A DNA stretch of 48,051 bases, the filler included, from Jimgerdemannia flammicorona (Eukaryota): the NCBI GenBank assembly GCA_003990765.1. It is 2 parts of 2 records of this genome, joined end to end, with 100 filler letters (N's around TTAATTAATTAA, not from the genome) between each part and the next. Parts side by side here need not be neighbours in the genome. Positions count along the whole stretch, not along the records: positions 1 to 23,982 come from RBNJ01001038.1; 1 more part is not named here. The stretch is one strand, 5' to 3'. Below the pieces are notes generated by a model. The model did not search any database, was not told the origin of the DNA, and saw only the letters and a program-made list of their open reading frames with translations. Numbering within the stretch: position 1 is the first letter of the stretch; every line of letters begins with the position of its first letter. Positions 5,880-37,880 of the stretch are shown piece after piece. The translations under genes were made by a program, and so were the position numbers.

Positions 5880-5992
5880 GTATGTATATGTTATGTGGTG
5901 TTCCTGTTTTTATTCTTTCACCGGTGGTTCATTTTTTTTTTTTTTTTTTTCACAAATTATCCTCACCGTACTCTCCTTTTCCGGCCATCCAG

Positions 5993-8372
5993 ACATCCCA
6001 ATACCGAAACCGCCTTTCCAAGATGTTTATTCCGACCACCAAGGACAGCCTGCTGGGTCCCAACGCCGTCGCGAGCCACCGGCTGATGCTGCGCGCTGGC
6101 TTCATCCGTCAGGTATCCGCCCGTACGAACTATCATCGCACCTTACGCTCCTTACCGGTGCCCTCCGTTCTCACCGTCGGCAGCGTGTCTTTCTACGTAG
6201 TCCGCGTCGGGGGTGTACAGCCTACTGCCCCTCGGGCTCAGGACACTCGATAAGCTAGAGACGATCATTGATGAGGAGATGAGGTTCATTGGTGAGTTTC
6301 TCGGGCAAAGTGGATCGGGTTTACGAACTGTTGGGAAAACAACGCGTGCTGATTTATGATGTGAGTTTTTGTGATTTAGACGCGCAGAAGCTCTCCCTAC
6401 CGGCGTTGCTCTCGGCTGAGCCTTGGAAGCAAATGGGGCGATGGGAATCCTCAGGCGGCGAGGTTGATATTGTGCCTCACATCTTGCAAAATCCTCTCCA
6501 TCGCAGCATGTTCATGACTGGATTATCATTCTCCCTCACATTCTCATTCCTTATGATAATTGCTAGCTTTTCCGTCTCAAGGATCGTAAGTCCGCCGACT
6601 TTCTCCTCGCCCCGACGCACGAGGAGGAGATCACCCAGCTGGTTGCCGGCGAGGTGACGTCCTACCGCCAGCTCCCGCTACGGCTCTACCAAATTGGTAC
6701 GTCTCTCCTCCTGCCGCCTGACCCCTTACCATTTCTGTCTCGTATACTATTTCCTTAACCCCCACTCCGGGTATTCTGAGCAGGCCGCAAATATCGCGAC
6801 GAGATGCGCCCGCGTTCGGGTCTGCTGCGCGGGCGGGAGTTCTTAATGAAGGATCTGTATACGTTCGATGCGACGGAGGAAGAGGCCACGGCCACGTACG
6901 AGGACGTCAGGGTCGCATATGCCAAAGTATTTCGAAGGATCGGGGTGCCGTTTGTGGTGGTATGTTTGGCCTAGGGGGAAAGGGGTTGGAGGTGATGTAT
7001 AAAATAGATTGAATGATAGAACAATGTATTCAACTCGTTCAAAATGCGACCTTTCGGATACAGGCTGATGCGGATACCGGAAATATTGGAGGGACGAGTT
7101 CTCATGAATATCACTTTATTTCGGAAGGTATGCAGCAAGCGGCCAGTTGTTTGTTGTATATTCAATGGAATCTTGAAAGTTTGGCTAACGGGCAGTGCAT
7201 TTATCGAACCCTGCAACATAGTCGGTGAGGACTCCCTCCTCATCTGCCCTGAATGCGGCTACACTGCCAACGAGGAACGCGCACGGGGTATCATCCCTCA
7301 CCACCACCACGCACCCTCCATCTCCAACCCCTTCGATACTTTCGCTTCCAGCCTTCTCCCCTCGCTCTCTCTCCCTCCCTCCGCTCTTACCATCCAACTC
7401 GCGTCGGCGGAACTTGTGATCAAGAATGCCAAGGAGGCAGAGACAAGCTCCGAGCGGGACGTTGTGGCCATTGTGATCGAGTCTGGGCGGACGGTGAATA
7501 TGCTCAAGCTCCGCGACGCTGTCAAGAAGCAGCTGGGTGAAAAGGCTAAAGACGGCATCAACATGGATTTACTCATGGGAATGCAAACGCTCGAGACGAT
7601 GAGAAAGCAAGAGGAGCGGTGGTCAAAGCTTTCGGTGTACGTAGACGATTCCGTGAACTCTATCATTCCTGATCCGACATCCGCACCTCCTCTCCCACAG
7701 TCTATCGAATCCCATCCGCTCGCTGTCTTCGCCGTGCACACTGACACGACCTTGCACCACGGCGACTTCCACAACGTTCAACCGGGCGACACCTGCCCGC
7801 AATGCCCCGCCCCACTGACCCTTCACCGCGCCATTGAGGTCGGTCATACCTTCCTACTAGGTACCAAATACTCAGCGGCGCTGGGCGCGACCTTCCGTCC
7901 CGCCGGTCCCGTAGCTGGGGGTGTGCTACCGATTCAGATGGGCTGCTTCGGACTGGGCGTATCGCGCATGCTGGCAGCCATAGTGGAGTCGTCAAATGAC
8001 ACACGTGGGATCGCCTGGCCCGTCTCTGTGGCACCGTTCCGCGTCGCCGTCGTGCCTGTTGATGTGAAGAATGAAGGCATGAAAGCCGTGGCAGAGAGGG
8101 TGTATGATGCGTTGGATGGGATGGGAGGTTCGTTACGGGATGAGGTCGTTATGGATGATCGGCAGGGGGCCTCGTTTGGGTTTAGGATGAAGGATGCGGA
8201 GTTGGTCGGGTATCCGTATATAGTTGTCGTGGGGAAGAGAGCGGCGGAAGGGGTGGTGGAGATACAGGAAAGGAGGAAAGGGGAAAAGAACCGGAGTTGG
8301 GAGATCGGCGTTGGGGAGGTGGGTGGGGAGGTGGGGGGATTGGTAGCGAAGTGGTTGAGCGAGCGGCATTAA
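5993..8372 (+). CDS. Mitochondrial (bacterial-type) prolyl-tRNA synthetase, 7 exons, ~604 aa (AIM10/PARS2-like)
   Basis: Exons 5993-6112, 6201-6291, 6380-6462, 6567-6696, 6784-6959, 7064-7127 and 7222-8372 sum to 1815 nt in frame. Motifs: [32 protein letters not shown], motif 2 [49 protein letters not shown], motif 3 [10 protein letters not shown], and an anticodon-binding domain (DDR...KDAELVGYP). Confidence 0.95.
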
Positions 8373-8993
8373 TTAACGAGGCAAGGGATGTGATGTGATG
8401 TGATGTATGTATTCGAAACACATAAAGGAGGCTTCACGTTTCCCATAGATAAATCTCACTCACGACAGTTTTCCACCCACAAGATTTCTCACCATGCACT
8501 ACTTACTCTCTAGCATCTATAGTTCTTTGGAAGATCCCAAACCGGATCAATCCATACGTTCATGTACGCCCGTATAATGCAAACCACACTAGTAATAGCT
8601 CATAATCGAAGGGAGCCAGATGGCAATACTACGCTGTTCAACATTGAAGCACCATGCAATTTGTTGGATTAAATGGCATTGCGGATTTCGTTTACCACAC
8701 TTTAAAATTGTGAGCTCGCTTCGGTTTTCACTGTTCTTTGCCTATTGTTCGTCTCGCAGACGTTTGAGGCTGGCAAATGTGAATATGGAGACCAGGTGAC
8801 AACAATCATGCTACTCATATTGGCTGTAGAATTGAATTAGATTTTTGGAAAAAATAAAAATAAAAATAAAAATAACAATGAAATACAATCTCTGAATTTA
8901 ATATATAATACTTGATTATATTTTTTCAGTAATATTATTCAAAACTATCAATCAGAAATAAAATAGCTAATCTATAAAACAGATTACTATTAT

Positions 8994-9448
8994 TGTAATA
9001 GTTCTAGTTTCTTTAAGAGGAAGTAGCTAAGATTGGTAATTCTGGTAGGTCTAAAGTAGCTCAAAGAGATACTTATAAGTTTAAGTATTCTTAAAGAAAT
9101 TCTGAGAGAAAATATTCTGAGCTTTATTTAAGCAGAGAACAAGAATATTTATATAGAATCTGAAAGAAAGATCTGGAAGGATCTTAGAAAAGAAGAGAAA
9201 AGCCAAGAAATAGGTTCTTAGTAAAGATGACTAATAGAATTCTACAATGTTTCAAAAGGTTCTATGACTAGCTAAGATAAGATACTTGATACTGAGAAAA
9301 GATAAGAATGTTCTAATGATGTCTTGATATCAAGAGAAGATTTCTAGATATTCAGAAGATACTGGAATATAGTAGAATATTCAAGAAAAGGCAAGAAAAG
9401 ACTAGAGAAAAGATGCAAAAAAAAAAATATAACTATGAAACTGTTATA
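8994..9448 (-). mobile_element. ~455-bp Ty3/Gypsy LTR (3' LTR, minus orientation), same family as the LTR at 13163-13628
   Basis: Reverse complement of 13163-13628. It ends ...TATTACA on the minus strand and is preceded on that strand by a polypurine tract, AAGAAGAGAGAGA (9449-9461). Confidence 0.8.
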
Positions 9449-9567
9449 TCTCTCTCTTCTTAAGAACAATGTCCTTATTGAATTTTTAGATAATATAAGA
9501 CTAAATATACTTAATCAAAATTTCTCAAACTTATATCAGTATATTGGTGAGAACTGGCCATCCTTAT

Positions 9568-9625
9568 ATAGAGTAGAGGGCCTATTCTGTTAAAAAAAAA
9601 AAAAAAATAGAGTAGAGGGCCTATT
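9568..9625 (+). mobile_element. Minimal poly(A) retro-insertion with a 19-bp target-site duplication
   Basis: ATAGAGTAGAGGGCCTATT + CTGTT + A-run + ATAGAGTAGAGGGCCTATT. Confidence 0.75.
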
Positions 9626-10426
9626 ATCAGACTAATCAACTGAATCTAGCTAGTAGCTTCATTTTAGTAGACTTCTTATTCACTAGATGTTCTACTAGTT
9701 CTGGGGTTTCAAAGTAAACTTTCAATATATAAGGTACTGATTATTACTATAGATTATTGATAATCTAAGAAAAAGATATAACTCAGAATCAATAATATTC
9801 AAACTATATTCTGAAGACTATTTTCTCCATATTCTTCTCATTAATAAGGATCTAATAATATCCATTTTATAGATCTAGTAAAGAGAATATCTTGATCTTA
9901 AAGATCTGATAGAGTAGTTTATCAATCTTTGAAAGAGTATACTGATTCTTGATGGTGATCTTATTGAGGACTCAGTAGTCAATATATATTCACAAAGAGT
10001 TATTCTTCTTGATAAAGAAAATTAGTAGTTTAAAGAGTGATTTACTGAGTTTAATATATCTTTGAGTTAGTGGTTTGATTAATTCTTTCTTAAGAACTTT
10101 GAGCTCAGACTGGGTCAGTTGGTAGATACTCTTGTACGAGAGTTCTGCTCCTAAGATGAGACTAATTTTATATTGAATTTGATGCTTGAGTAAAAGATCT
10201 GTGGATTTCTGAAAAATATCTCAGGATTTCTCAAAGAGTTTCTGGACTTCTGGTAAGACTAAGCTGGTTAGAGTCTCTATTATCTCTTTTACTATGCAGA
10301 TGTAGTATGTATTTCCCTTTTTGTAAGATAGTCTCTTTATTTAGATAGTAGAAATAAGTTTAATTTCTTGATTGTTAGTTCTATTTTACTGGGGCATTAG
10401 AGTGATTCTTCTTTCTTTATACTATA

Positions 10427-12870
10427 TATAAGTGTACAACCTCTAAGCTACCAAAATCACATATCATCCTCAGATTGAATTTAGAAATTACATGCAAGAT
10501 CATAAAGCTGAGTCAAACTAAAGTTATAAAGTACAAAGCTGAGTCAACTTAAAGTCATAGAACACAAGACTCATACAAATAGAACTTTATCAATTAGGAC
10601 TAAATATATATATACTAAGTACTCAGATATATCAAAATAAAGAACTACAATAAACCAAACAAACAACCACAACTCTCAAACAATATATATAACTATAATC
10701 ACCAAGATCTACAACTATATCTATACTGACATTTAGAATATCATTATCAACTGAGCCACCCCTCTCCTGCTCCTTATAAATATCCATAGTCTAGTATCTC
10801 TCTACTTCATAGAAGCCTGATGGAATACTCTAAACATGCTCAGTAAAGTCTACTGAATCAGACAAATCTCAAGCTACTACCAGATCAACTATCTTCTAAA
10901 AGATATGATCAAACACTACTATAATACAGATATTATTCAGATATCTCAATATCAGAAACTCATCATTTACAAATATCAAGAACTCTTTTACAAGTATAGT
11001 ACCTTTATTCTCTATCTCTAAGTTACTATTACTAAAATAGTTACCACTCTATCTTATGGCCAAATCAATGATATAATATAAGAACTTAATCACAAGTATA
11101 TCAAATATGTCCAGATCATAGACAGAACCTTCCCACACCCCAATGACCATATCTTGCAAATATCTTAAGTTAGATATGTCATAAAAGACATCTACAATAT
11201 AATTCAGTTCAATAATAATAAAGCAGAAGATAACAATCCCTCTAATACTGATATGACCTCTAGCCAAGAATCTTTGCCAGCTCTGATCACTCTGCCAACC
11301 TTACTAATGAACTTATAACAGTTCATAACTACCTATGAGACCTATTTAAATAATGATCATTAGTATGAGTATTAATCTATATTTACTTCCAATTACTTCA
11401 ACTATAATAAAGAAACTAGAGAATATAATCTGTATCTCCAGATAACTCTTAAGATCAAATCAACAACTCTACTACCCAAGTATGAGTGATATGAATAATA
11501 GTCACCAGCCTACTATAATCTAGCAATATATAGTACTATAATCTATAGAAGGTATACAGACAGTGAATCTGATGAAAGCAAAGTTGATATACCTCTTCTT
11601 TGTCTACCAACTTCATACCCAATATATGAGACAGATGATGCTATCCTATAAGATAGTAATGAGGTCCCAATGTATTATTATCTGAACAAACAGAGAGAAG
11701 TAATCTGAGAATCACTCTTTCTAAATAACTACTTCATCAGAGATAATATTATTGATGGTGATATCATTGAAGGCTATCTAGATAGTATATAAATCTATAG
11801 ATAGCTTAGTAGTTATTAATATAGTTAGATTAGCCTTATATGATATAACTGTGTACTGACTCAGTCAGACAATCTCTTGATCAGTTCACACTTATACTAT
11901 GTGACTGCATTCCAACTCAGCAAGACACAAAGTACTATATCTATATTTAGTATAGTTCAGATAACCTCCCATTAGTATAAATATCCCCTCTCCCAGACCT
12001 CAGAATCTCAGACTTGAATAATCTGAATACAACCTCTGAACATTTCTCCACAATATTCCTTCACATAACTACTCTTAATATAGTAATATCATAAATAGTG
12101 AATAAACCTATTTAATAATCTACAAATTACTCTTAAGTAAATCTGCTCTTCATTAAGTCTCATCCCTAACTAGTACTCCCAAATGAGTTGAATCAATTCA
12201 AATTGAATCAAATTGGAGATTTTTCAATTTGAATCAATTTGAATCGAATCAAAAGTCGAATTGAATTGAGGGTCTGATTTGAACCCTAATTTTCAAAATA
12301 CAATATCTCAGCGTAAACTCATCCAAATCTAACATACTTTAGATTGTTAGAATTACATTAATACGGTGAATCTAACAAGCTAAAATATGTTAAATTTGGA
12401 TGAGTTTTTGTTGAGTTATTACATTTTGAAAATTAAGGTTCAAATCGAACTTTGAATTGAATTGGACCTTTAATTCGATTCAAATTGAATTGAATTGGAC
12501 CCTTGATTCGATTGAATCAAATCGAGTTTGGGCCAAATTCGATTTGATTCGATTCATTGGGAGCACTATTCCTAACCATATCATGAAATTTCCTAATTGA
12601 GTATTGTCTGTAGTAATATACTGATTCAACTAAGCTGGTCTTAGTCTTTTGAACTTTCTAAAATACAGAAAATTCTGAACATCCAGAACTAGTCCAAAAA
12701 AGGACTTTGGTTGAGACATCAATCTGATCTTGAAATCAATAAGTATAGAAGATATACTCTATATAAAATTGATCTTAATCTTAAAAAAATAGTCTTCTAG
12801 AATATCCAGAACTTTTAGAAAACCCTTTCAAAATTATGTAATGGTTACTCTAACAAGTAATCCTCTTATA
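10427..12870 (+). mobile_element. Solo ~2.05-kb chromovirus LTR (with a MITE inserted), flanked by 5-bp TSD CTATA
   Basis: Colinear reverse complement of 15448-17507; termini decayed from TGTA...TACA to TATA...TATA; CTATA at 10422-10426 and 12871-12875. Confidence 0.9.
12171..12568. mobile_element. hAT-type MITE, near-palindromic, rich in GAATC/GATTC pentamers
   Basis: TIRs TAGTACTCCCAA...TTGGGAGCACTA; 8-bp TSD TCCCTAAC/TTCCTAAC; absent from the sister LTR at ~15745; a second copy lies at 35739-36211. Confidence 0.92.
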
Positions 12871-13162
12871 CTATAGATTAACTTCATTTATTTTCTAGTT
12901 GAGATCTGGATTGTACTTAGTCAACTAAGTCTTTTTAAGAATAATATTATATTCTGGAAGATCTGCAATATTGAAATCTAGCTTCTCTTGATATTTACCA
13001 ATCTTAAGTAGTAAGTTTTTACAAACTTGGATCAATAGCTAGATCTTATTATTATCAAAGAATACTTATTTTTTTCTCAATTATTAGTTTACTTTGAGCT
13101 GTAATTCTCTTAACTGTCTTAATACTGATAAAGTTTTCTATAATACTGCTATCTAGTAGGAC

Positions 13163-15447
13163 TATAACAATTTTACAGTCATATTTAGTCTTAGTATATT
13201 TTCACATCTTTTAGTTAGTCTTTTCTTATCATTTCTTGAATATTCTACTATGTTCTGCCATCTTCTACTTACTTAGAAACCTTCTCTCAGTACCTAGACA
13301 CTATTAGAACATTCTTGTCTTTCCTTGATACTAAGTATCTTGTCTTAGCTAGTTATGGAACCTTTCAGAACATTGTAGAATAGTATTAGTCAGCTTTGCT
13401 GAAAACCTATTTCTTAGTATTTCTCTTTTTTTTCAAGATCCTTCTGGATCTTTCTTTCAGATCATATATAAATATTCTTGTTCTCTACCTGAATAAAGCT
13501 TAGAATATTTTCTCCCAGAAATTCTTCAAGAATACTTGAACCTTTAAGTATCTCTTCAAGCTACTTTAAGTCAACTAGAACTTCCATATTTAACTGCTTC
13601 CTCTTAAAAGAAACTAGAACTATTATACTTGGTAGCAGTAGTATCATTATACCTTATCTTATTAAGAAACCTTATATGAATTTGGAAACCAGTCACAAAT
13701 AGTCATATAAATCTAAAATGAGCCACAAAGAGTCAGTCTACCAGCTAGACCCCTCTGCTACAGAAGAAGCAAGAGGATTGCAGCTCAATATAGAGAATAT
13801 GATCAATGCTATGGCCCACCAAATCTAAGAACTTCAAGTATAACTAGAATAGCAGAAAACAAGAACTGTGAGTATATCATATTCTGCTATAGTACTAGTT
13901 AGTTTCAAGCCACTCAAGCCAGATACCTTCAACAGCCATCAAGGAGAGCTATCTATAGATGTATGGACCTTTCAGTTGGACCAATACTTTGAGCTCACAA
14001 GAATGGAAGAAGACATGTAAGTCCAATTTGCCACCATACTCCTTTGAGGAAATATAGCTATCTGGTGGTACAATCATATTATAGTTACCTCTGTATACTC
14101 ATATGCATGAATCAGAGACTGGAAAGCCTTCAAGAGAGCCCTTCACAAGCAGTTCAAGCCTGCTAATGCTATTAAACTAGCTAGAGATAAGCAAGCAAAC
14201 ATTAAGCAACTCAAGTCTGTATAAAGCTATAATGTACAATTCTTATCAATCCTATTTGAGCTATCAGTAATACATATCTGAGGATGAAAAGATAGACTGC
14301 TATGTCCAAGGCCTAAAGGAAAACACATGAGTCAAGGTCAAGCTAGAAGAGTCCAAAAATCTTGATGAAGCCATGAGAATTGCTGATGGGTTTGATGTTA
14401 TCACTTTTAATAACTGCTTTAAACCAGAATACTACAAGAAGAACCACTTTGAGAACTGTCATAAGAACCAACTAAGGACAGTTAGCCCAGCACTAATAGA
14501 TCTAGACACTATGAACAAAAAGAACACCAAGCTTATCTCTGAAGAGAAGAACTACCTAAAGAAATCCAGAACCTGTTTCTTCTATTGCCAAACAGAACAC
14601 ATTGTAACCAAATATCCTAAGAAGACTAGTGAATCCTCAAGACCAGTTACTGTATTGTCCAAAGATATATCTGTCAACCCTAATCTGAGCTCAAGATCAA
14701 GAAGCTTCATCTGAGGGCCTAGATCTCTCAATATCAAACAGAAGGAGCCATTGGTCTTGACCTATACTCAGTCAAATAAGTCACTATTCCAGCTAAGGGC
14801 CAAACTCTAGTATCTACTGGAAGTTCAATATCCTGAAGGATATTATGCCAAAATTGCACCATAATCAGGACTTAGTGTCAAATATCATTTAGATATAGGC
14901 ACTGATATCATTGACTCAGACTTTCAAGGACAAGTTTAAGTTCTACTTATCAATCAGAAGGATCAAGACTATACAGTTAAGGAAGGAGACCAAGTCATGC
15001 AAATGATTCTAGAAAAAGCCAGTTAACTCAAGATTATAGAAGTCCAAGAACTCCCTGAGACCAAATAAGATAAAAAAGGTTTTGGCAGCACTGATTAAGC
15101 AGTAAGTCTTAGTGAAAATTGAGCTCAAGCTATGCTCATTTTCAAAGGCCTAGTCAAAGGAAAGAAGTTCAAGTACTTATATATAGATAGTGGAGCTATA
15201 GGGAACTTCATTAATCAGAATCTCATTAAAAGCCTCAAGATTCTTACCAAGCCAATACTCAAGAATAATAGTATAGTTACTGTAGATGGTACTCTGTACC
15301 CCATTGAGTCAATTGTCACCAAACTACTCATTAAGATCCAGAAATATTGGGAATGAGTAGACTTTAAGATTACACTACTAGGAGATTATAATCTGATTTT
15401 AGAAAAACTCTGACTTATGAAACACAACCTAGATATTGATTAGTGCA
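13163..15447 (+). mobile_element. 5' part of a Ty3/Gypsy element: LTR, PBS, gag, zinc knuckle, dUTPase, protease (decayed), truncated by a chromovirus insertion
   Basis: LTR 13163-13628 followed by a TGGTAGC PBS. Gag from ~13718 (PLKPDTFNS...DVWTFQLDQYF...AIWW), degenerate CCHC (CFFYCQTEHIVTKYP), dUTPase, then protease YIDSGAIGNFI. Confidence 0.88.
14690..15097 (+). pseudogene. dUTPase domain within the Gypsy element
   Basis: LKIKKLH...GAIGLDLYS...LVSTG...YPEGYYAKIAP*SGLSVK...IIDSDFQG...EGDQVMQMILEK...KGFGSTD: all five trimeric dUTPase motifs, with stops at probable CGA/CAA codons and a frameshift after LVSTG. Confidence 0.9.
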
Positions 15448-17507
15448 TGTAAGAGGGTTACTTTTTAGGGTAGCCATTACATAGTTCTAGAAGAGTTTTC
15501 TGGGAGTTCTGGATATTCTGGAAGACTGTTTTCTTATAGTCAAGATCAATTTCATATAGAGTACATCCTATATGCTTATTGATTTCAAGATTGGGTTGAT
15601 GTCTCAACCAAAGTCCTTTTTCAGACTAGTTCTGGATGTTCAGAGTTTCTGTATTTCAGGAAGTTTAAGAAACTAAGACCAGCTTAGTTGAATTGGCATA
15701 TCACTGCAGACAATACCCAATTAGGAAATTTCATGATGGGGTTAGGAGTGGGACCCAACAGGGAACAGATTTACTTAAGAGTGATTTGTGGGTTATTAAA
15801 TAGGTTTATTTGCTATTCATGATATTGCTATACTAGGAGTAGTTGTATGAAGGGATATTGTGGGGAAGTATTCAGGAATGTTCTTGTGTGTTCGAGTCTG
15901 GTATTCTGAGGTCTGGGGGAGGGGATATTTATACTAGTGAGGGGCTATCTGGACTATACTGAATATGGATGTAGTACTAAGTACCTTGCTGAGTCAAAAT
16001 GCAGTCATATAGTATAAGTGTGATCTGACATGTCAAGAGATCGTCTGACTGCTGAGTTAGTTCACAGTTACATCATATAAAGCTAATCTAACTATACTAT
16101 GACTGCTAGGCTATTTATGGGTTTAGGCGCTGTCTGGATAGTCCTTGATGACATCACCATCAATTGCATCATCTCTGATGAAGTAGTCATCTAAGAAGAG
16201 TGGTTTGCGGATTACTTTTCCTTGTTTGCTGAGGTAGTAATATATTGGGACTTCATCTCCATCCCACAGAATAGCATCATCTGTCTCATAGGCTGGATAA
16301 GGTGTTGGTGGATGAAGGATGGGTGTATTGTCTTTGCTTTCATTGGATTTGCTGTCTGTGTACCTTCTATAGGTTACAGCGCTATGAGTTGCAGGATTGT
16401 AGTAAGCTGGTAGCTGTGGTTCATATCACTCGTACTCAGGTAGTGGAGTGGTTGGTTCGATCTTGAGGGTTGTCTGGAGGTATATGTTGTATTCTCTGGT
16501 CTCTTCATTATAGTTGAAGTAATCAGGGGTGAATGTGGGTTGGTATTCATACCAGTGGTCATTGTCCCAATAAGTCTTGTATGCAGTTATAAACTGTTGT
16601 AAGTTCATTGGCAAGGTTGGTGGAGTGATCAGAGTTGGCAGAGATCCTTAGCTAGAGGTCATGTCAGCATCAGAGGGATCATTGTCTTCTGCTTCATCTT
16701 CATCAAAGTGGATTATATTGTAGATATCCTTCATAGTGTATCCAACTTGGGGCATTTGCAGGATCTGATCATTGGGGTGTAGAAGGTTCTGTCTGTGGTT
16801 TCGATATACTCGAGGTACTTCTGGTTGAGTTCTTGTATCATGTCATTGATTTGACCATAGGATAGAGTAGCAACCATTTCACTGGTAGTAACTCAGAGGC
16901 AGGGAATAATGGTGCTGTACTCATAGAAGAGTTCTCGATATTTGTGGGCGATGAGCTTCTGGTGTTGAGACATCTGGGTAATGTCTGTATCATAGTGGTG
17001 TTCGACCATGTCTTCCAGGAGGTGGCCAATCTGGTAGTAGCTTGAGATTTGTCTGATTTTGTGGGCCTCACTAAGCATGTTCAGAGCATTCCATCGGGCT
17101 TCCACGAAGTAGAGGGGTGCTAGGCTATGGATATTCATGAGGGGCAGAGGGGGTGTGGCTCGGTTGACAATGGTATTCCAAATGTCAGCACAGATGTGGT
17201 TATAGATCTTGGTGGTCATGTTTGTGTGTTTGGAAGTTGTGGTTGTTGTTTGTCTTAGTTCTCTGATTTGACACATCTTGGTACTTGGTATATATGCATT
17301 TGGTCCTGATTGATAAGACTCCGTTTGTGTGAATCTTGTGTTCTGTGACTTCATATTGACTCAGCTTTGTACATTGTAACTTCGGTTTGACTCAGCTTCG
17401 TGATCGAGCAGGTAATTTCCAGATTTGTTCAGAGGTTGCATGAGATTTCAGTGGCTTGTTCAGAGGGTGACATATAATTTCAGTGGCTTGGAGGTTGTGT
17501 GCCTACA
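15448..17507 (-). mobile_element. 3' LTR (2060 bp) of a chromovirus, containing an internal ORF
   Basis: On the minus strand it starts TGTAGGC directly after the PPT AGAAGGGGAGAGT and ends CTCTTACA; a solo copy with TSD lies at 10427-12870. Confidence 0.9.
16123..17219 (-). pseudogene. LTR-embedded ORF, ~365 aa, unknown function
   Basis: MTTKIYNHICADIWNTIVNR...YFVEARWNALNML...DIYNIIHFDEDEAEDND...YWDNDHWYEYQPTFTPDYFNYNEETREY...FLDDYFIRDDAIDGDVIKDYPDSA*. One frameshift and one stop in this copy are open in the solo-LTR copy. Confidence 0.7.
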
Positions 17508-19382
17508 ACTCTCCCCTTCTTAGCTTTCGACATCCTCATTGGGGCCTACCAATTTTGTTCAGTAGTATAGGGAGGATAGGCTTGCTTTCAGTTTTGCCAT
17601 TTTTCCAGAGGGTCAGTATTCTTGTCTTGTTTTGCTGAGTTCTTAGTTTGGTTTGCAATAATTATATGTTCAGGAGGATAATATATAGTATGTACGGATA
17701 GGTGCAGAGTATTTGGTTCTAGTTGTTCAAGGAATCATATTTCTGAACTAGATCAGTAGCATTCTGAAGATTAGTCTTGGGTTCCCAGGTTGCATCATGG
17801 ATTGGGTAACCTTTCCATTTGACAAGGTACTCAGGGTGGCTCTTGTTGCCATGTTTGTTGAGGATTTGTTCAACTTCATATTCTTCTTGATCATTAATAA
17901 TGACAGGTGCAGGTGGTTTGGTGGTCCAGTTTGGAAATAGCTTGTCATCATTCTCATTATATTGCTTGAGGCATTAAACATTAAAGACTGGGTGAATCTT
18001 AATGATATTCGGTAGCACCAATTTGTAGGAGGTTGGAGAGACTTGTGCAATGACTTCAAATGGTCCAATGAACTTGCTGTTCAGCTTTGTAGATGGTCTA
18101 TGCTTGAGGTTGTCAACTTGGTATCCTCTGATGTCCAGTAGAACTTTTTCACCAATATCAAAGGTTTCTTCTCGGTGGTGTTGGTTAAAATACTGTGACT
18201 GTTGTTCTTGAGCTTGTGATAAATTCTCAATTGTGATCTGGCTTAGATTGTGCATTCAGAGTAGGAATTCTTCAATAGCTTTGACTGTGGAGGGTTCATT
18301 GGTAGTTTGGAGAAGCATCAAAGGGGTGTTTGGGTTTTGTCCAGTGTTGGTGAAGAATGGGGTCATTCCCAGGGAGGCTTGCTTGCTGTTGTTATAAGCA
18401 AACTCAACTGCTGTCAGGTATTTATGCCAATCATCTTGTCTGTAGGAAACATAGTTTCTTAACATTTATTCTAGAGTTTGGTTCATTCTTTCAGTTTGAC
18501 CATCAGTTTCTAGGTGAAAGGCTGTGGATAGTACAAGTTTTGTTCCAAGGTGTGGATGGAGGGCTTTCCAAAAATAGCTGGTGAATTTCAGGTCTCGGTC
18601 ACTAATGATGATCTTGGGAAGACCATGATAGTGGAAGATGTTGTCAAACAACAGTATGGCTATGTCTGGTGCTGTTGCAGTAGTGGTAGTAGACACAAAG
18701 TGGGTTTGTTTGCTGAGATAGTCCATAAAGACAACAATTGCATCTTTCCCATTCTTTGTTCAGGGTAGTTGTACAATGAAGTCCATAGAGATTTGTTCCC
18801 AATTCACAGATGGTACTGGGATAGGGTGAAGTAAGCCAGGTTTTGCTAGTGTTAAGGACTTGTTTCATTGGCAGGCATCACAGGAAGTGATGTAGGTTTT
18901 GAGCTGATCTGCCATGCGGAGCCAATAGAAGTTCCAGGAGATAACTTTATAGCATTTGTCAAATTCTAAATGTCCAGCTGTAGGAGCATCATGGCATTCG
19001 AATAGGATAGTCCTTCGGAGGTCTCAGTTGTTTGGGACATACAGTCTGTCTTTATAGTAAATAGTATTGTCCTTCAGTTGGTATTGATGATACTGTGTAT
19101 GCTTATTAGCATTATCACTATTCAGGATTTCTCGCAGTGCTTGAGCTTCCTTATCATCGGCACATGCTGTAATAATTTGTTCCATGATGGAGTTTGTAAC
19201 CAAGGTGAGAGTTTGGATAATTTCTTCGATTGGCAGTCTGGAGATTGCATCAGCAACAATATTTTCCTTGCCAAGGTAGTACTGGATTTCGTAGTCAAAG
19301 TTGGTAAGGACTTTCATCTATCTGGCTTGCTTTTGAGAAAGGGTAGCCTGTGTCTTGATATTGACTAATGATTTGTGGTCAG
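17508..19382 (-). mobile_element. Chromovirus pol 3' half: RNase H end, integrase, chromodomain (decayed)
   Basis: TDHKSL...FDYEIQY.LGKENIVADAISR; HHCC (HDAPTAGH...SCDACQ); ISMDFIVQLP; TDGQTER; KFIGPFEV; chromodomain EYEVEQIL...YLVKWKGYPIHDATWEP. Confidence 0.93.
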
Positions 19383-22143
19383 TAGTACATCGCAACCCAA
19401 GCCGACCTGTGTATATATTTAACCCGACCCAGAATTATATGTCACCCATCTTTAACCCGACCCAGAATTATACATCACCCGTCTTTAACCTGACCTGGAA
19501 TAATACATCACCCGTCTTTAACCCAACCTGGAATTATACGTCACCCATCTTTAACCCGACCTAGAATTGTACATCACCCATCTTTAACCTGACCCGGAAA
19601 GATATATTACCCATCTTTAACCCAATCTGGAAATGTATGTCACCTGACCCGTTATTTACCCTTAACCCAAACCTGAACCTGACCCCTGAACCCAACCCTG
19701 AACCTGACCCCTGAACCCAACCCTGAACCCGACCCTCTGAACTCTGCTCTGAAAAAATGATTCGGAAAATATTTGGATAATATTCAGAGTAATTGAAAGT
19801 GAAAAATATCTGAAGACCACCAAGAATCCAAACACATGCATGTACGAATTGTATTTACACACAAGCTATTTTGACATTCAGTCACTAGCTCACCAGCAAT
19901 AGAAAAAATACATTCAGATGGAATAGATGTTGCCAAAATAGCAAGATAATCGCGAGCCATTCGTGAAAGATTAGGATATACCGACTGATTTCACTGCCAC
20001 CAATCCAGTATATCTATACGAGGATCAGCTGGATTCTTTGACAAATAACTGAAACAGAGAAATATGAGTGAAAATTAACCAAGCCAATCAAAAAACATAA
20101 AAACAACACCCACCATTCAAGCTCATCATCTACATTGATGCACTGTTTCTTCTCATATATTGAGTTGATAAAATCATCGGCATCACGAGATATTGAGGGT
20201 ATAATGATAGCATTAACAGGCTTATACTCCTTTTCCCAGATACGTTCCATCTGATTCTTCCATTCATCAATTAAGGATTTTTTCCATTGCTCATGACAGA
20301 AATAATGCATGTTGATATGTAGATCTAAGGCCGAAGCTATGCTGTATAATGGTGTCGTCTTACAGTAATACTTTAGAAGTTTCGTATGTGCATTCTCAGC
20401 AGCAGTAAGCATTATCTATAAAAAATAAAAATATATACATATTACTTCCCAATTACTTACTAAATTAGTTCCTAAATTTACAAATAAAATTACTTTCAAA
20501 ATCATATATATGTATACCTGATTAAAATGTTCACTAGTTTGATATGTATCAATGATATCTTTGAGGTAATTACATAGCCGATTAAATAGTGGGATAACAG
20601 CCACTATTGTAGAATACTTCGAAGCTGACATCACAGTTGTCACTTTGGCAAAAGGCTTGAGAAATCGGCAAATCAATTCAAATTGTTACCATGCATCTTC
20701 AGATATATTGCTCATTTGTTTATCTATAGCACACAATATATCCAAGCCCTATTTGGATGTAATATCAATTTATTTAGTACCAAAATACTTCCGAATTGTA
20801 TTCCAAAATCTATACAAATAGATTCAAAATCTTACCTTATGAATCTCCAGAGCACGCACTAACATTTTATGTGTAGAACTCCATCTCATCGTAACATCTA
20901 AGAGAGGCTTCAAAATGGAAATTCTGGAGGATTCACAGACCTTTGCCAGTTGTGCTTGTCGTTGCACTGAATTTTTGATCTTCTTTATCAACTCCCGTAG
21001 CTTTCCAATGGGCTCGCTAAGAGAACCAAGAGCATCATGAACGACGAGATTCAACACATGCCCGAAACAGCGTACATGAGTGAGCGGATGATGGAGATTC
21101 TCAAACAGAGTATCATTGTTACTGGCATTGTCACACACAACAGCAATGATTTGATTGTCACTAGGCAATAAATCATCTATTACCAGCTCTAGACTTTTTG
21201 CAAGATTGGCACCCGTGTGTATTATTTCGCTGATATTCACAAAGTCTAAGATAATGTCATGCATCTTCCAATCACTATCAATCTAATGGGCTGTAATTCC
21301 AAGGAAAGCCTTGATGTTAATATCCGATGTCCAACAATCAAGTGTAAGTGACACCTTTGACTTGAGTCCTGCTAGCCTTGCTTTCACTTGAGTCTGCAAT
21401 AGTTCGAATTTCTTTCAAATAACTCACGAAATCGTATCAGCCAATGGAAGGGCCAGATCAGGGCATAATATGTGAAGGAGATACTTGAAGCCAGTATTTT
21501 TGATAGTGGAGAATGGCTGATATCCAGTGACAATAAAGTTGGCAATTAACCGATGGAAATTTTCATCACTTAAAGTCTTACTAGTATGTTCCTATTTGTA
21601 ATAATAAAATTTGATCAATTATTTTTCTAATAACCTCCTAAGTACTTCCCAAATTCCATTCTATCCATACTCACAATATCATCTTTCTTAGACCAGCGAG
21701 GATTCTCAGCACGCTGGAGAGGTAAGAGCATGGCATTGTGATGCTTCCAGAGATGTTGTTTAAGATTGTTGATATTGCTGTCCTTCGATATATAGCTCCA
21801 AGTCATGTAATGGTTGCAACTGATGAGCTTACTTTGTAAATTCTATTTGAATAGAGAGATATGAGACTATATTAGAACCTCAACCACTTACAACCAACCA
21901 CCCACCCTTACGACTGAGACCAATCACCCCTATGAATTCAACCATTAGTATAATGTATAAAACTACCTTTGTGGCATGATTCTACACCCAGCTATCATCA
22001 GGTTTTGTTTTTATTTTTATTCTCGTGCTCGTTGGTGATAACGAACTGGTGGAGATATCTGATATATCCTCTGATATATCCTCTGATATATCATCCAATG
22101 GTTCTGAGATTTCTCCTAAATATACTTCTTGATCATTAGACAT
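19383..22143 (-). mobile_element. hAT DNA transposon: intron-containing transposase (pseudogenised) plus 3' subterminal repeats and probable TIR
   Basis: Minus strand: LTLDCWTS...FLGITAH, VVCDNASNN, RCFGHVLNLVV, DVTMRWSSTHKML and hATC YPNLSRMARDYLAILATSIPSE. A TAGTACATCGCAACCC terminus at 19383 interrupts the RNase H TDH motif. Confidence 0.9.
19418..19745. repeat. Subterminal arrays: 7 x 33-bp unit followed by AACCCTG/ACCCCTG heptamer-like repeats
   Basis: TTTAACCCGACC(C/T)RGAATTATACATCACCCRTC with its AACC core at 19421, 19454, 19487, 19520, 19553, 19586 and 19619. Confidence 0.9.
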
Positions 22144-22485: not shown

Positions 22486-23140
22486 GATTCAGCGTGTTCT
22501 GCATTGAGCAAGGTTTGCAACGACATTTGAGCAAGGTTTGTAGTGCGTTTGAGCGAGATTTGCAGTGAGGTTCAAGCAAGATTTGCAAGCAAGATTTGCA
22601 AGTGAGATTTGCACATAAGATTAAAGCGAGATTTGCATAAGCTAGGCTTTGCAAGCCTTGTGCTTGTAAGCCTGGACTCAGTCACAAGCTGATATGATGT
22701 ATATATAAGCTGATATCATGTGATATCAGCTATCAGCTGAGCTTGCAAGCACAAGGCTTGCAAATCTCACTCGAACCTCGCTGCAAATCTCGCTCAAATG
22801 CACTACAAATCTCACTCAAACATCGTTGCAAACCTTGCTCAATCGGGGCTTACACAGAACCCACTGAATCACGCAGAGAGGAGTAGAATGCAGTGAGGAA
22901 AGCTCCAGATTACAAGCATAAGTGTAAGCATAAGTGTAAGCATAAGCGTAAGTGTAAGCATAAGCATAAGCGTAAGCGTAAGTATAAGCTTTGCTCCGCT
23001 CAGTCTGATAAGCTGATAATAAGCTGATATCACATGATATCAGCTATCAGCTGAGCGGAGCAAAGCTTGTGCTTGTGCTTATACTTATACTTACGCTTGC
23101 AATCCGGAGCTTTCCTTACTGCATTCCACTCCTCTTGCAT
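22486..23140. repeat. Two adjacent long imperfect inverted repeats sharing one palindromic core
   Basis: Arms 22486-~22670 and ~22740-22870; arms ~22876-23003 and 23050-~23138. Cores AGCTGATATCATGTGATATCAGCT (22708-22731) and AGCTGATATCACATGATATCAGCT (23022-23045). Confidence 0.85.
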
Positions 23141-23244
23141 TCTACTCCTCTTGCATTCCACTCCTCTTGCACAACTCTCACATATTCCTTCATCTCCCTC
23201 ACCCTCATTCCTCAGATTGCAAACAACATGCAATTTAGAAATGG

Positions 23245-23516
23245 GTTTTGAAAGAGATTTCAAAGAGATTCCGAAAGAGATTTCGAAGAGATTCGGAAAG
23301 AGCTTCTGAAAGAGATTTCGGAGAGATTCTGAAAGAGCTTCTGAAAGATGTTATAGCTTTTGAACATTTAAGATATCGAAAGCTTACTTTTGCCTCTTGT
23401 TCTTTTCGCCTCATCCTTCGCTTTGCCTCATTCTTTGCTTCGCCTCGTCCTTTGCTTCACCTCGTCCTTCGCTTCGCCTCATCCTTCGCTTCGCCTCATC
23501 CTTCGCTTCGCCTCAC
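23245..23516. repeat. Short tandem arrays (GAAAGAGATTTC-like 12-mer; CTTCGCCTCATC-like)
   Basis: Visible periodic repeats at 23245-23348 and 23405-23516. Confidence 0.8.
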
Positions 23517-23982
23517 TTAATTCACTGCTATGTTGAGAAAACATGGATATGACTGCCTGGCCAATAAGTATTTACTTGGCCCCCCCCCAAGCTCAACGTG
23601 CTTCAGCTCACCGTCCCAAAGCTCGGCACCCTAAAGATGCCCAGCTTGCTAACACTCAGCCTGCCGAGCTTGCTGACACCCAGCCTGCCGAGCTTGCCGA
23701 CACCCAGGTTACCAAGCTTGCCGACTCCCAGCTCACTGACCCTCAGCTCCCCACTCTCCAGCTTGACCACCAGCTTGCCGCCAGTCCGCAAGCACAAGGT
23801 CCCCCACCAGATCCCAATAACGCAGCTCAAAAAAGTTAGTTTTTTTTTTTTTTCTTTTGAAATCAATGTCTGACTTTTTTTCCTAATAACATTCGAAATA
23901 TACATATCCTCCAGCTTCTAAGCCTGGGCCGGAGTGCAAATCTTGCTACAATTGTCATTTTTGCCATCAAGTTTGCCCAAAC

Positions 23983-24082
23983 NNNNNNNNNNNNNNNNNN
24001 NNNNNNNNNNNNNNNNNNNNNNNNNNTTAATTAATTAANNNNNNNNNNNNNNNNNNNNNNNNNNNNNNNNNNNNNNNNNNNN
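23983..24082. other. Scaffold gap with an artificial TTAATTAATTAA spacer
   Basis: An N run with a stop-in-all-frames linker in its centre. Confidence 0.95.
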
Positions 24083-24096
24083 AAAAAAAAAAAAAA

Positions 24097-27000
24097 TAGG
24101 GCAGAAGAGATATAGTGTTGACAGAGGGGGGAGCCAGGTGACTGGTCAGGTGGTAGGTCAGGTGACTGCTAGGAGACAGGGGTCTGGAAGTGGGTTAGCT
24201 GGGACTGGTATTCCTGGGGCTGGGCTGGTGGCTGGACTGGTGGCTGGGGGAAGGACTACTAATGGGCTTCCTGGGACTGGTGGGGTAACTGCCAGTATCT
24301 TGAGATGTAAGAGGAAGATGACAATGGTGGCAGGCTCTGATGAACTAGTGGTGTGCCCCTTTTTCCACAAATCAGTGTCAATGTGGGCAATCTCAGTGAA
24401 TTTTCTGGGGCTGAGTCTGTCTGCCAGAGAAGTTTTGGGGCTAGTGGGTGAGGAGATTGCTAGTGCAGAGTCTCTGAAGTTTATTCCTTTGACAGAGGTG
24501 ATAGAGATTGGTTTTGTAGAGGAGGAGGAGATGGTGAAGACTCTGGAGAAAGGATTGATGGTCAAGAGCATCAAGATTGGAATAGTGAGATATCTGAGGT
24601 AGGATCCACATACCATCCACCTGGTGGTAGAAGAGTTACTGACTCTTAGAAGACAGGAGACCAAGGAGATAGTGGCAGAGGTACTGGTGGGCTTTAGTGA
24701 GATGGTTGACTTCAGATTCATGTCCTGGGAGAGGACTAAGCTAAGGAATGGCAACTGTGAGATAATATTAAGGCTGGAGGGCAAGGAGGCCACAGGGCTT
24801 GATAGAGACTGGCCAGAGGTGATTCGAATTGGCAGACAAGAGTGCAAAGTGTGGAAGAGGAAGGGATCAGAGCAAGAGAAGGAGGAATTGTTATTGGCTC
24901 TGGAAGAGAGGGAGACTGCAAAGAAATTGAGAAAAAGGAGATGGAAGAAGTTTGCAAAGGACTGGATATGGGTTTCAATGGATGGGAAGAGGAAGAGATA
25001 GAGGAAAGAGAACTGGGAATGTCTGCAAACAGTTCTCTAGGATTTACAGACAGAGGAGGTAGTAAGAGTGAAGGCAGCCAGGAATTAGATAGAGGAGATA
25101 AAGACAGCCAAGGTGTCATTTTCACAGTTAGATGGTGTAGAGAGTTCAGCTCATATACCAGTGACAGGGAAGTGGGCTGATAAGGAGGAGGTGAGAGAAG
25201 GGAGTTTTGAGAAGATCACCAAGATAGTACCAGAAACTCAAGTGGAGGATGTTTGAATGGCTGGAGCAGCAAATGTCTATTGAGATTACTCAGAGGCTGG
25301 TGAGATTGTATGACTGGAGAAGATAACTGAGAAGGATGACCTAGTGGATGTGGTCTCTGATATCTTAGCTGATAGAGAGATACTTCAGAAGTTGAGTAGA
25401 ACTCTCAGGCTGGCCACTCTGGGGCTATTGGTGATGATGACTAATAGTTGGTACCAGGTAGTTCTTAAGGAGCTTGCAGAGGAAGATATCAAGGAAGTGG
25501 ACATATATCACAGATCTTGGGAGGCTTGGGAGGGATTCCACAATATCAAATTATAAGGATCAAAATTGGTGATGGTGATGGCAGCAGTACTGCTGGATGA
25601 TGAAGAATATGAAGTTGATGAGGCCAAGATGACTGAGATCAGGAAGGTGGTATCAGAATAAGTGGACTCATTCTGTAGCAGTACTAATAGGATATATATT
25701 TGGAGGACAATCTTTAAGAAACAAAAAGAGATAATCTATAGCAGGGCTGAGAAGGTAGTGGCAATTTCAACTGAGTTTTAAACAATTTTATCAATGATGA
25801 TGAACAGTTTGCATATATTATCTCTAAATATCAATAGTCTGCATAATAGAGTTAAGTAGTGGCATCTGTTTTAGTGGCTGAAAGTCAGGAGGTATGATAT
25901 GGTGCTTCTTCAGAATGTTTGAGCTTATGGCAAACAGGACTATGAGGAGTAGTGTAAGAAATAGTATGGCAGTGCTGGTTGGAATAGGTAGGTGGGCATA
26001 TTAGTGGACATTGGTAGAGAAGAATTAATGGAAGTGGAAGTCTATAGTAATTAGATGATTTAGGGAAGACTAAAAGAAGGACTGAGAGATGGACTGGTAG
26101 TGGCCTCTGCCTACCTTCCAGCAGTTGATAGAGAGTGAAAGCAATGAGTAGAGAATTGGCTAGCATAGGAGAGCCAGGTAGAGGTGGGGTTGGACATTCT
26201 GGGGAGAGATTTTAATATAGTATATGACAGAACTCTGGATAGGTATGATGAGGGAGTAGGTGTGGCAGTCTCAGCAGGGCTGACTCAATAGCTCTAGGTT
26301 GAGAGAGATATAGGTCTGGTGGATGGTGTTCAACAGTAGTAAGGAGAAAAGCTAGGGCCCTTTACTCAGTGGCATTCAGTAGGCAAAGGTCTGATGGGGA
26401 CAAGGATTGATTGGATTTTGGTGGCTGAAGGTTGGGGAAATGTTTTGGACATTGTGGAGGCTAGGTGGTACTCTTGGTCAGATCATTAGGAAGTGGAGGT
26501 AAGTGGCAGATTTCAGGTAGTCAGTGGGGGTGAGAGTCGCTGGCAGCTCAATATAGTACTCCTCCATAGGCAGGTAGAGTAGGATAACTTTGTAGAGATA
26601 GCAAAACAGGAGGTGGCAAGATGGAAGGAGGAAGGGCAACAGATCGAGCAGTAGTGGGGTAAATTCAAACATTTGGCTAGTGCCTATTGGTGGGATATAG
26701 GAGAGGTTGCTGAGAGAGAGCAAAAGAATAAGAAGAGAAGAGTGGAGCAAGGACTGTGGTGGCAGTTGAGGTTGATGGAAAAGGGGAATCTGTCTGAAGC
26801 AAGGTACTCCCAGTTAGCTACAGAGTTGGCCAAATTGCAGCTGGATCTTCAGACAGCTGAGGATAGAGTAGTTGATGGCCTACTAGTGAGACTGTGGACA
26901 AGGCAGTTGGAGGAAGGGGAGCAACCTACAAAGTATCTATCAGGCATCTTGAAGAATAGAAAGGTGTAGTATAGCTGGGCTTCTATATTATATGAAGATT

Positions 27001-29829
27001 CACTAGAATTACAGAAATGCTGGATGAGATTTCTGGGCAATGGTGGGATCTCTGACAGAATGGAGGGGGACTAGTGGAGGAAAGGATGATATAAGAAGAC
27101 AATGACAATTTGGTTAGAAGTTGGCTGGTAGTAGCATAGCCTGAAATAGAGGGGGTAATAATGGACAGAGTAGCCCTAGAAGAGATGTTGGAGATATTGG
27201 AGAAAGCACAGACAGCTTTGTCTTTGGGGGAGGATGGGTTGTTATGGGAATTCTGAAAGGAGTTCTGGGTTGAGTTTGGGGACTGGCTAGTTGAAATGGC
27301 AAACTTTGTCTTAAAGAAAAGAAGCTGAATTGACAATAACTCTGTAGGGCTGATCTCTTTACTATATAAGAAGAAGGGGAATTAGTGGGTGTAGCAGAAT
27401 TGGTAGCCAATTATATTACTAAATATAGACAGAAAACTGGTGTCCAAGTTACTGGCTGGAAGGATGCAGCAGTAGATCAGTAGACTGATAAGAGAGGACC
27501 AAAGAGGCTTTGTCAAAGAGAGGCAGATTAGAGATAGTATGGCTTGGATACAGAATGTCTTAGAGGGCTATCAGAGTCAGTAAGTAGATGGGAGGATGAT
27601 CTTCTTGGATCAGGAGAAGGTATATAACAGAGTGTGGTGGAACTATCTTGAGGTGATACTGCAGAAAGCTGGGTTCTATTCTGAGGAGGCAAGGAGGTTG
27701 ATGGGGCTAGTGTGAGATTACTGAGCTGTAGTTCTGATGAATGAGTAGAGTGGCCTAGAGTTTGTCTTGAAGAGGAGAGTATCACAGAGTGACCTGCTCT
27801 CTCCCCTTCTCTATATTCTTTTCTTGGAGCCTTTGTTGGCCTAGCTGAAGGGACAGCTAACTGGATTGCAAATGAGAGATGTGGTCTGGAAACTGGGGGC
27901 ATTTGCTGATGATATAGTGGTTGGACTAGACTGCTTAGAGGATGTAGAATACCTGCAAGAAGGGGTTGGAGAGTATGAGAGGTTGGCAGGTGTGAAATTG
28001 AACTAGGACAAATGTGAGATGATGGAGCTTAGTGTGGGTTTGAGAGAAAATGGGAGATTTGGAAAGACAGTGGCTGCTGGGAATATAGTTCAATATTTGG
28101 GTATCTGGTTTTTGGTTTATGAGACAGTATTGCCAAAAGAGTAGTAGTATAGTATGATACCGAAGTGGGAAGGAGCACTAGCTGGTTGGTCAGAGTGGTA
28201 CTTCTCCTTAATAGGAAGAGTAGTGGTCCTGAATGTATATTAGTTACTGAAACTATAGTATTTGGAATATCATCTGGATTTTTCAAGTTGGGCGGTGCAG
28301 AAGTTGAAGAAGGTGATAGAAGAATGGTTATGACAGAGAATATAGCTGCAGATTGGTTATGAGACAGTGGTATTGAGGAAAGCTCATGGTTATAAAAACT
28401 GGAGCCCAAATGGGAAGGACCCTTCTACATGCAAGATATCAAGGGAACTATGTACCTTCTGGCTTAGAAAAATCTCAGAGACCATACTGCCTACCATAGT
28501 ACATAGGAACAGACTTAAGAAGTACCATGAACCTATATAAGAGAAGCAAAACATAATGACTGCCCATGAGGTTCTAGTCTGTGAATCATAACAGCATGTC
28601 CCGTGACCAGCAGGCTATCTGTCTGGACCATTCTCTAAGGGATATAGCACTGGCAACTACTCATCCATGAGACTTTTGAAGTCAGAGAAGTTTGAACCAT
28701 CAACTGATTGATGGAGGTCTGAGATTGGTGGACTTTTGGAGGAGGTTGAAGGTACTTTGGAGTTGGTGGGATATCAGCTAGTGGAGCTGGGGGAAGAAGG
28801 CTGAGGCAGACTAGCTATGGACAATTGAGAGATCAGGTTCTGCCTCCATGATGAGATCTGGAAGGATATGCAAGGGCTGCTTCAGATAGAAAGAGTCAGT
28901 AGATTGTGGTTTAAAGGGTTCTGGTGGAGTATTGTAGAGACCTGACTGGCTATGAGATTGACAGGGCCAGAGATAAAAGAGGGCAAGAATTTGGAGTAGC
29001 AATAGTAGTAGTTGGAGAATCTGCACATTGGTGGGTACCAGTTGGTGGAGTATTCTCTGTCAGAGATGATGAAGTGGATCAGGTTGAGCCCTCTTGAAAG
29101 ATGGCTGGTGGGCTGGCAGAAGGCTGGGTTTAGGGAGGATTGAGATTGGAGAAAGATCTAAAGCTGGGGAGATTTCTTACTTAAGGTTGTACCACCTAAG
29201 TACTGGATGATATAATAGAGATTTATGAGAAGAAATGTGATACTTAGTTATAAGGTAGGATAGACAGAAGTAAATAGAGATAGAGATTGTGAGTGGTACT
29301 GTGAGGTGGATAGCAGAGTGATGCTGATACCAGAGTATGTTCTGGTAGAATATCTGAGAATAGAAGAGTACTGACAGATACTAGAAGGATATTGGGACCT
29401 AAAGGAGAGGATATTAGGAGAACTCACTGGCCTGGTGGTCAAGAGGTATTTAGTTGGAGTCTCTAGAGATATTTGGGGTAGGCTGAGCTGTATTCTTAAA
29501 GTTTGGGTTTTGATGGTAGTATATTAATGAAGGGTATTTGAGCAGGAACCTTAGATGGAGATAGGGAAATTGATTGAGAGATAGTGATGGCTCATTAGGG
29601 AGATATTGCAAGAATGGTGGTTTCAGGAGAAGTGGCAACAGCTGGAGATTTTGAGAAAGATACAGGATATTATAAAGAAGAGTTATGATAATTTGTGCTA
29701 GATAACTGAGGAGTAAGGTGGAAAGAAGAGATTGGCTGAGAGGTCTTTCTGTATATATACCTTAGTAGTAGTTGGGGTGAGGGTCTTATTTATGTATTAG
29801 ATTCTAGGTAATAAAGGAGCTCAAGAGAC

Positions 29830-33773: not shown

Positions 33774-34016
33774 AACAAAAAGCGAGCAGCTGTGTTCGGG
33801 AACAGGACAGAGAAGCAGGGTCAAAAGTCGAAGCGAGGAAGAGCGCACTGCCCACCACAAAGTGGTACTCTCAAAATATAGATGGAGACAACAATAGGGT
33901 GCCCATTATCTGAATGCATCGTGGCCAAACCAACAGCGAACCCGTTGGAATCTAAGTTTGAAATTACGCCTCCCCGATCGAATATATAGGACTATCCCTA
34001 TATAAAAAATAGGAGT

Positions 34017-37870: not shown

Positions 37871-37880
37871 TTTAATATCA

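Follow-up and report, generated by a model that had tools for sequence, protein, structure and literature searches.

A probable accessory gene, now decayed, inside the long terminal repeat of a chromovirus in Jimgerdemannia flammicorona

The LTR and its solo copy

We analysed a stretch of 48,051 nucleotides from Jimgerdemannia flammicorona (assembly GCA_003990765.1), referred to here as the window, which joins two parts of the genome and has two runs of N at 23983-24082. On its minus strand, at 15448-17507, lies a 2,060-bp unit (copy A) that contains a decayed sense open reading frame (ORF). From its sequence context, the unit is very probably a real 2.06-kb long terminal repeat (LTR) of a Ty3/Gypsy chromovirus. 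It runs from TGTAGG to CTTACA, with the TG...CA ends of an LTR, and is preceded on the minus strand by a polypurine tract (PPT), AGAAGGGGAGAG, at 17509-17520, followed by a single T and then by the LTR start at 17507. The same arrangement was found in a contig of a public sequencing run (X3, see below), in which the LTR start past 17458 is joined to an identical purine tract, indicating that the PPT-to-LTR junction recurs in another copy. Upstream of the PPT, a 3′ pol fragment at 17719-19380 on the minus strand, whose start near 19380 is a by-eye reading of the translation, matched the Pfam families Integrase_H2C2 (E 2.1e-17), SH3_Tf2-1 (E 1.5e-14) and Chromo (PF00385, E 1.4e-17), together with a partial rve match (E 2e-4) that falls under the Pfam cut-off. 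Because integrase and chromodomain lie upstream of copy A, the element is a Ty3/Gypsy chromovirus, and copy A is its 3′ LTR.

This chromovirus copy is truncated at its 5′ side, being broken off near 19400 beside hAT remnants. Self-comparison revealed no 5′ LTR in the window because of this truncation, so its absence says nothing about the family. Searches of the minus strand at 18700-19599 and 22600-29800 gave neither reverse transcriptase (RT) nor gag. The adjoining hAT transposase remnants occupy 19787-21282 on the minus strand, where Dimer_Tnp_hAT was matched at 19787-19990 (E 2.4e-12) and DUF659 weakly at 20827-21282, and a tandem repeat at 19415-19632 lies at the chromovirus/hAT junction.

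A BLAST comparison of the unit with the window returned one other copy, on the opposite strand to copy A. Copy B occupies 10427-12870 on the plus strand and is 77.5% identical to copy A over 1,711 nt (10445-12148) and 85.3% identical over 299 nt (12570-12868). Its first and last bases are those of copy A: it starts TATAAG at 10427, one transition away from TGTAAG, and ends CTTATA at 12870. A 5-bp target duplication, CTATA, flanks it at 10422-10426 and 12871-12875. A single unit with the exact ends of the LTR and a 5-bp duplication identifies copy B as a solo LTR, and its ends set the LTR limits independently of the PPT. The initial annotation had drawn these limits from the PPT, the TG...CA ends and a solo copy flanked by a target-site duplication, and the matching ends and CTATA duplication bear them out. 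Its further statement that the LTR travels as a solo LTR was wrong, since recombination leaves the solo LTR behind.

Between the two matching segments, copy B contains a palindromic insert of 421 bp at 12149-12569 (strand undefined), which is foreign to the LTR and resembles a miniature inverted-repeat transposable element (MITE). A second copy of this MITE-like element, about 420 bp long with inverted ends, lies at 35800-36211, and the two copies are 81% identical. Elsewhere copy B differs from copy A mostly by C-to-T (187) and G-to-A (113) changes. The C-to-T changes fell on 94 of 205 CpA sites (0.46), 11 of 20 CpG sites (0.55), 57 of 154 CpC sites (0.37) and 24 of 157 CpT sites (0.15). This strand-symmetric, CpA/CpG-preferring hypermutation is like that of repeat-induced point mutation (RIP). 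Repeat copies are also contained in AT-rich blocks (GC 0.25-0.32) at 8900-14500 and 34000-38000, and a pair of inverted 460-bp repeats, 79% identical (8996-9448 and 13163-13625), flanks the solo LTR region.

The reading frame and its past selection

The ORF of copy A, about 365 codons long, extends on the minus strand from a Met codon at 17219 to a terminal TAA at 16125-16123 (16123-17219). Four lesions interrupt it: a TGA at 16895-16893, a 1-nt gap at 16782/16781, a TAA at 16650-16648 and a second TGA at 16428-16426. Only 3 stops thus occur in the 364 codons read, compared with 14 and 34 in the other two sense frames. In composition-preserving shuffles of the same sequence the mean was 18.0 stops and the minimum 5, and 0 of 20,000 shuffles reached 3, which bears out the frameshifted sense ORF of the initial annotation. 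By tblastn, copies A and B hold the only copies of the ORF in the window.

In copy B the ORF lies at 10695-11789 on the plus strand, as a single frame across 365 codons with 15 stops and with the start codon changed to ATA. It stays in frame where copy A has its frameshift, and the TAA of copy A is CAA in copy B; both points had been claimed before and are correct, though copy B has 15 stops itself. A context-preserving permutation of the copy B mutations gave 16.1 stops on average, so that the number observed is as expected from unselected mutation after insertion. Both window copies are dead. Copy A shows a small number of C-to-T type hits together with a 1-nt deletion, and copy B shows massive RIP-like C-to-T mutation.

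Which of these lesions are shared was examined in contigs of four public runs, three of them from soil metagenomes or unknown samples and one (X7) guessed to be RNA; 3,333, 416, 400 and 382 pieces were placed on the LTR at 80% likeness. The plus-strand A at 16650 was read as G, turning TAA into CAA, in nearly all of the depth in X1 (611.3 of 613.3, 27 contigs) and X6 (114.9 of 118.4, 11 contigs), and in all of it in X7 (387.4 of 387.4, 2 contigs) and X3 (51.2 of 51.2, 8 contigs). A frame-restoring extra base behind 16781 was present at depths of 129.8 of 145.5 in X1 (11 contigs), 16.7 of 29.4 in X6 (2 contigs) and 4.89 of 17.6 in X3 (1 contig). The TAA and the frameshift are lesions private to copy A.

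Protein collections gave one relative for each half of the product. In 5.8 billion clusters and 1.84 billion representatives, the C-half (P0002) has a sole relative, P0003, which is 247 aa long and 63% identical (E 8e-84). It passes the frameshift in frame (FPHP, like copy B), reads through the TAA site without a stop and carries Gln at the second TGA; of the 205 columns that can be compared, 148 (72%) agree with copy A or B. The sole relative of the N-half (P0001), P0004, is 128 aa long and 86% identical; it opens with the same Met-Thr-Thr and reads Arg where copy A has its first TGA. The contigs that encode P0003 and P0004 measure 998 and 1,180 bases, and each of the two proteins is a singleton. 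The earlier suggestion that the two TGAs shared by copies A and B are mutated CGA codons is consistent with the Arg of P0004 at the first; at the second, where P0003 has Gln, CGA is only plausible. All 3 CGA codons that remain in copy A are mutated in copy B, two of them to TGA, which makes parallel CGA-to-TGA hits plausible. Wider scans confirmed no further relative: a protein-based scan of metagenome contigs gave 217 pattern matches, viral contigs 121 and 63 and genome contigs 158, with 0 confirmed in each case, and a 21-nt LTR pattern had 0 matches in metagenome contigs.

We then compared copies A and B for traces of selection. The ratio of nonsynonymous to synonymous substitution rates (dN/dS, Nei-Gojobori method, NG86) was 0.204 in the ORF frame (348 codons) and 0.40-1.29 in the other five frames. 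When the differences were moved among sites of the same base with the same neighbours, so that the RIP-like bias was kept, the permuted dN/dS was 0.389 +/- 0.049, and 0 of 1,000 permutations were as low as the observed value. Transversions, counted by codon position, numbered 6, 4 and 17, so that 17 of the 27 fell on third positions (p 0.0015). Gaps between the copies pointed the same way: the 1,097-nt ORF held 1 event (the private deletion of copy A), whereas 10 fell in the 963 nt of LTR around it (Fisher p 0.004), the MITE-like insert having been taken out of copy B before the count. In neutral simulations the frame stayed free of stops in 296 of 2,000 runs at 86% amino-acid identity, 52 of 2,000 at 72% and 12 of 2,000 at 64%. 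The evidence comes from two DNA copies and two protein fragments, and it supports the inference that selection maintained the frame while the LTR lineages diverged. We consider it highly likely, on these comparisons, that the ORF of about 365 codons was once a functional gene of the element.

Expression, product and competing explanations

The position of the ORF within the LTR suggests how it may have been inherited. The sole TATA[AT]A[AT] match in the LTR (TATAAATA, 15926-15933, minus strand) lies about 190 nt past the ORF stop and is the presumed promoter of the genomic RNA, and the sole AATAAA (15805-15810, minus strand) is the presumed polyadenylation signal at the border of the repeat (R) and unique 5′ (U5) regions. 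As both lie downstream of the ORF, the gene would sit in the unique 3′ (U3) region. We place U3 provisionally from 17507 to about 15900 and R plus U5 in the last ~450 nt, which would put the whole gene in U3. Reverse transcription of LTR elements copies U3 to both ends, so each new insertion would carry the gene twice, and copy B, as a solo LTR with the ORF, indicates that the gene stays behind after recombination. The U3 position and copy B thus agree with the earlier proposal of a gene that is duplicated with the LTR and kept in solo LTRs.

The gene may also have had a promoter of its own. Two TGAGTCA motifs at 17394-17388 and 17363-17357 (together 17357-17394, minus strand) form a candidate U3-internal promoter with a TATATA at about 17294-17289, some 70 nt ahead of the ATG, and the ATG itself, 288 nt into the LTR, is preceded by an A at -3. 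In that case the gene would most likely be its own transcription unit, with a promoter within the first 290 nt of U3, and its mRNA, of about 1.5 kb, would stop at the AATAAA of the LTR and could be made from either LTR and from solo LTRs. We hold the existence of such a promoter to be possible, with the odds somewhat below even.

Alternatively, the gene may have been LTR-borne with no promoter of its own, with the genomic RNA (through its 3′ U3) or a spliced subgenomic RNA serving as the template for translation, so that the 5′ LTR and solo copies were silent passengers. On the genomic RNA the ORF does follow pol and stop ahead of the R region, the proposed U3 promoter consists of short motifs, and the retroviral 3′ genes nef and sag are translated from the element's own transcripts. 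However, the stretch 70-175 nt before the ATG holds the two TGAGTCA motifs and the TATATA, and in the heavily mutated copy B both TGAGTCA motifs survive (10509 and 10540). We regard this alternative as unlikely, though with appreciable odds.

None of 13 listed public runs is catalogued as RNA, and X7 is taken for RNA by guess. In the X7 contigs, depth was 1,300-6,300 across 15586-15861 (presumed R-U5), with a peak of 4,600-6,300 at 15655-15861, and 0-380 across the ORF. In the DNA runs the excess over 15586-15861 was just 2- to 3-fold. Either a short, abundant transcript of the LTR or a segment shared more widely could account for the X7 depth.

As for the product, its N-terminal part of about 145 residues is helical, with five helices in an AlphaFold2 model of low confidence (predicted local distance difference test score, pLDDT, 42.7). 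An acidic stretch follows, and then a C-half with an isoelectric point of about 4.1; in P0003 this half lacks Cys, and Asp, Pro and Tyr each make up 9-10% of it. The pLDDT of the C-half was 29.8 in AlphaFold2 and that of P0003 0.39 in its Atlas model; the AlphaFold2 alignments had 3 rows, and low scores from so few rows are not evidence of disorder. Matches to Ku_PK_bind in Pfam (E 0.098) and to SKA1 in PDB (E 0.18) were at chance level, and Atlas feature matches for P0004 (0.90-0.93), with recognition under the bar, were likewise taken as chance. The product might have acted in trans to regulate expression of the element or host control, with the acidic stretch as an activation module. The anti-silencing role that the initial annotation gave as an example is likewise conjectural. 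Judged on sequence, a regulator or activator function is a guess that we think more probably wrong than right by a wide measure, and the ORF protein had no credible match in Pfam (E up to 10), among PDB sequences or in Atlas clusters, which counts against it. A bolder version would make the LTR a self-contained cassette of enhancer/promoter at the U3 edge, ORF and polyadenylation signal, with every LTR, solo LTRs included, expressing a trans-acting regulator that might, as an acidic protein, activate the genomic promoter further down the same LTR, or might block host silencing. This version is improbable. If true, it would mean retrovirus-like 'complex' regulation in a fungal chromovirus, and the more LTRs the genome contains, the higher the dose would be.

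We take as the best explanation, with a probability of about 0.6, that the ORF is an LTR-borne accessory gene which was once intact and under purifying selection, was likely its own transcription unit and perhaps encoded a regulator. Several points weigh against it. The LTR status was judged in a window with neither a full element nor a 5′ LTR, and the U3/R/U5 borders and the internal promoter were placed from motifs alone. A complete intact ORF was found neither in the window copies nor among the run contigs or the protein collections. P0003 and P0004 are both fragments, each on a contig of roughly 1 kb, and P0003 starts at a Met just past the first TGA site, so that its copy may be broken upstream. 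Both TGAs are common to copies A and B, whose shared source may therefore already have lost the gene; of the 446 differences in the runs 40 were listed, and both TGA sites are outside those 40. The permutation control of dN/dS cancels mutation context, and other biases may persist; one of the 10 gap events outside the ORF (20 nt, at 15450) is an alignment edge effect.

The ORF could instead be a captured host gene or fragment, a passenger in the LTR whose selection signal dates from its cellular past. The accessible text of one review documents transduction of cellular sequence by LTR retrotransposons and retroviruses (PMC7264820), and the protein has no known domain related to transposable elements. 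Yet selection was measured between two LTR copies, that is, inside the element lineage, and relatives 63-86% identical remain open. The base composition of the ORF (A.34, C.28, G.16, T.22) is close to that of the pol fragment (.35,.25,.16,.25) and unlike that of the gene-rich part of the window, which suggests long residence in the element and argues against a host gene having been captured recently. P0003 was the only match in an exhaustive search among 1.84 billion representatives, which yielded no cellular paralogue. Host capture is thus very unlikely. Even less probable is that the 2-kb unit combines a short true LTR with a 3′ internal gene, the ORF, at the position of env: the window offers no 5′ LTR for comparison, but the solo copy starts at the base after the PPT, ends at the same CA, holds the whole ORF and has its 5-bp duplication, and self-comparison found no direct repeats inside the unit. 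Finally, a frame that was open by chance in A/C-rich, stop-poor sequence and never a gene, as the lower frequency of TGA and TAG on a G-poor strand might allow, is already refuted by the shuffles and the stop-laden other sense frames, by protein relatives that keep the frame in independent copies, and by dN/dS.

We next compared the LTR-borne accessory gene with known systems. The gene sag of mouse mammary tumour virus (MMTV) is described as LTR-encoded in the text available from one article (PMC12548423). Like sag, the ORF is a sense gene of a few hundred codons in U3, duplicated in both LTRs of a provirus; the host here is a fungus, however, and the element a chromovirus without env. Searches of Pfam and PDB returned no sequence similarity to Sag. 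Sag is a membrane superantigen that acts on the vertebrate immune system, a target without counterpart here. The nef gene of the human and simian immunodeficiency viruses (HIV/SIV) and bel/tas of foamy viruses offer another likeness, as accessory or regulatory genes downstream of pol that reach into U3. Those genes begin upstream of the PPT and only overlap U3, whereas the entire ORF here, including its ATG, lies inside the LTR, and no homology to them was found.

Fungal chromoviruses such as MAGGY, Tf1 and the Tcn1-like groups share with this element the integrase with H2C2, core, SH3-like domain and chromodomain, the PPT, the TG...CA ends and the 5-bp target duplication. To our knowledge their LTRs are a few hundred bases long and non-coding, whereas the LTR here measures 2.06 kb, over half of it protein-coding frame. 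In plants, the additional ORFs of the LTR retrotransposons Grande (gene23), RIRE2 and Retand occupy the internal region, in most cases between pol and the 3′ LTR, and the accessible text of the article that describes them has 0 instances of 'in the LTR', 'within the LTR' or 'inside the LTR' (PMC7264820). They too are orphan, family-specific extra genes kept across Gypsy-type copies, but the ORF here is within the LTR limits, not between LTRs, and its host is a fungus. A full-text literature search, with subscription journals outside its coverage, returned nothing relevant, in the text it could reach, on an ORF or gene within the LTR of LTR retrotransposons. The protein and its placement in the LTR look undescribed. 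The accessory gene is thus placed as in MMTV, in an LTR retrotransposon, and is dead in the window.

Retrotransposon LTRs are regarded as non-coding control regions and are masked by annotation pipelines. A selected gene in U3 would mean that LTR length and content can conceal proteins encoded by the element and that solo LTRs may exceed the role of promoters, and it would extend retrovirus-style accessory genes beyond vertebrate retroviruses. The orphan protein would be a concrete candidate for involvement in the control of retrotransposons in an early-diverging fungus.

Other features of the window

Besides the chromovirus, the window contains three partial copies of an RT-bearing element that has no signs of LTRs, at 38283-43700, 43620-46060 (inverted) and 46596-48051. 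Its RVT_1 match (E 1.9e-16) lies at 43077-43634, the copies are 70-86% identical, and it is probably a non-LTR retrotransposon. The last copy holds a 388-codon open frame (46596-47762) that has no Pfam match. Direct repeats of 1 kb at 39.5 and 47 kb were considered as an LTR pair and rejected, as they belong to copies of this element.

On the minus strand of 24083-29800 we found strong strand asymmetry (GC skew 0.35-0.5) and long open frames, for example one of 292 codons at 24161-25036, which has no Pfam match. Within this region, 28726-29578 resembles 38283-39136 at 66%. Tandem repeats of 69-84 nt, 68-82% identical, occur at 4860-5406 in a GC-rich, probably genic part of the window.

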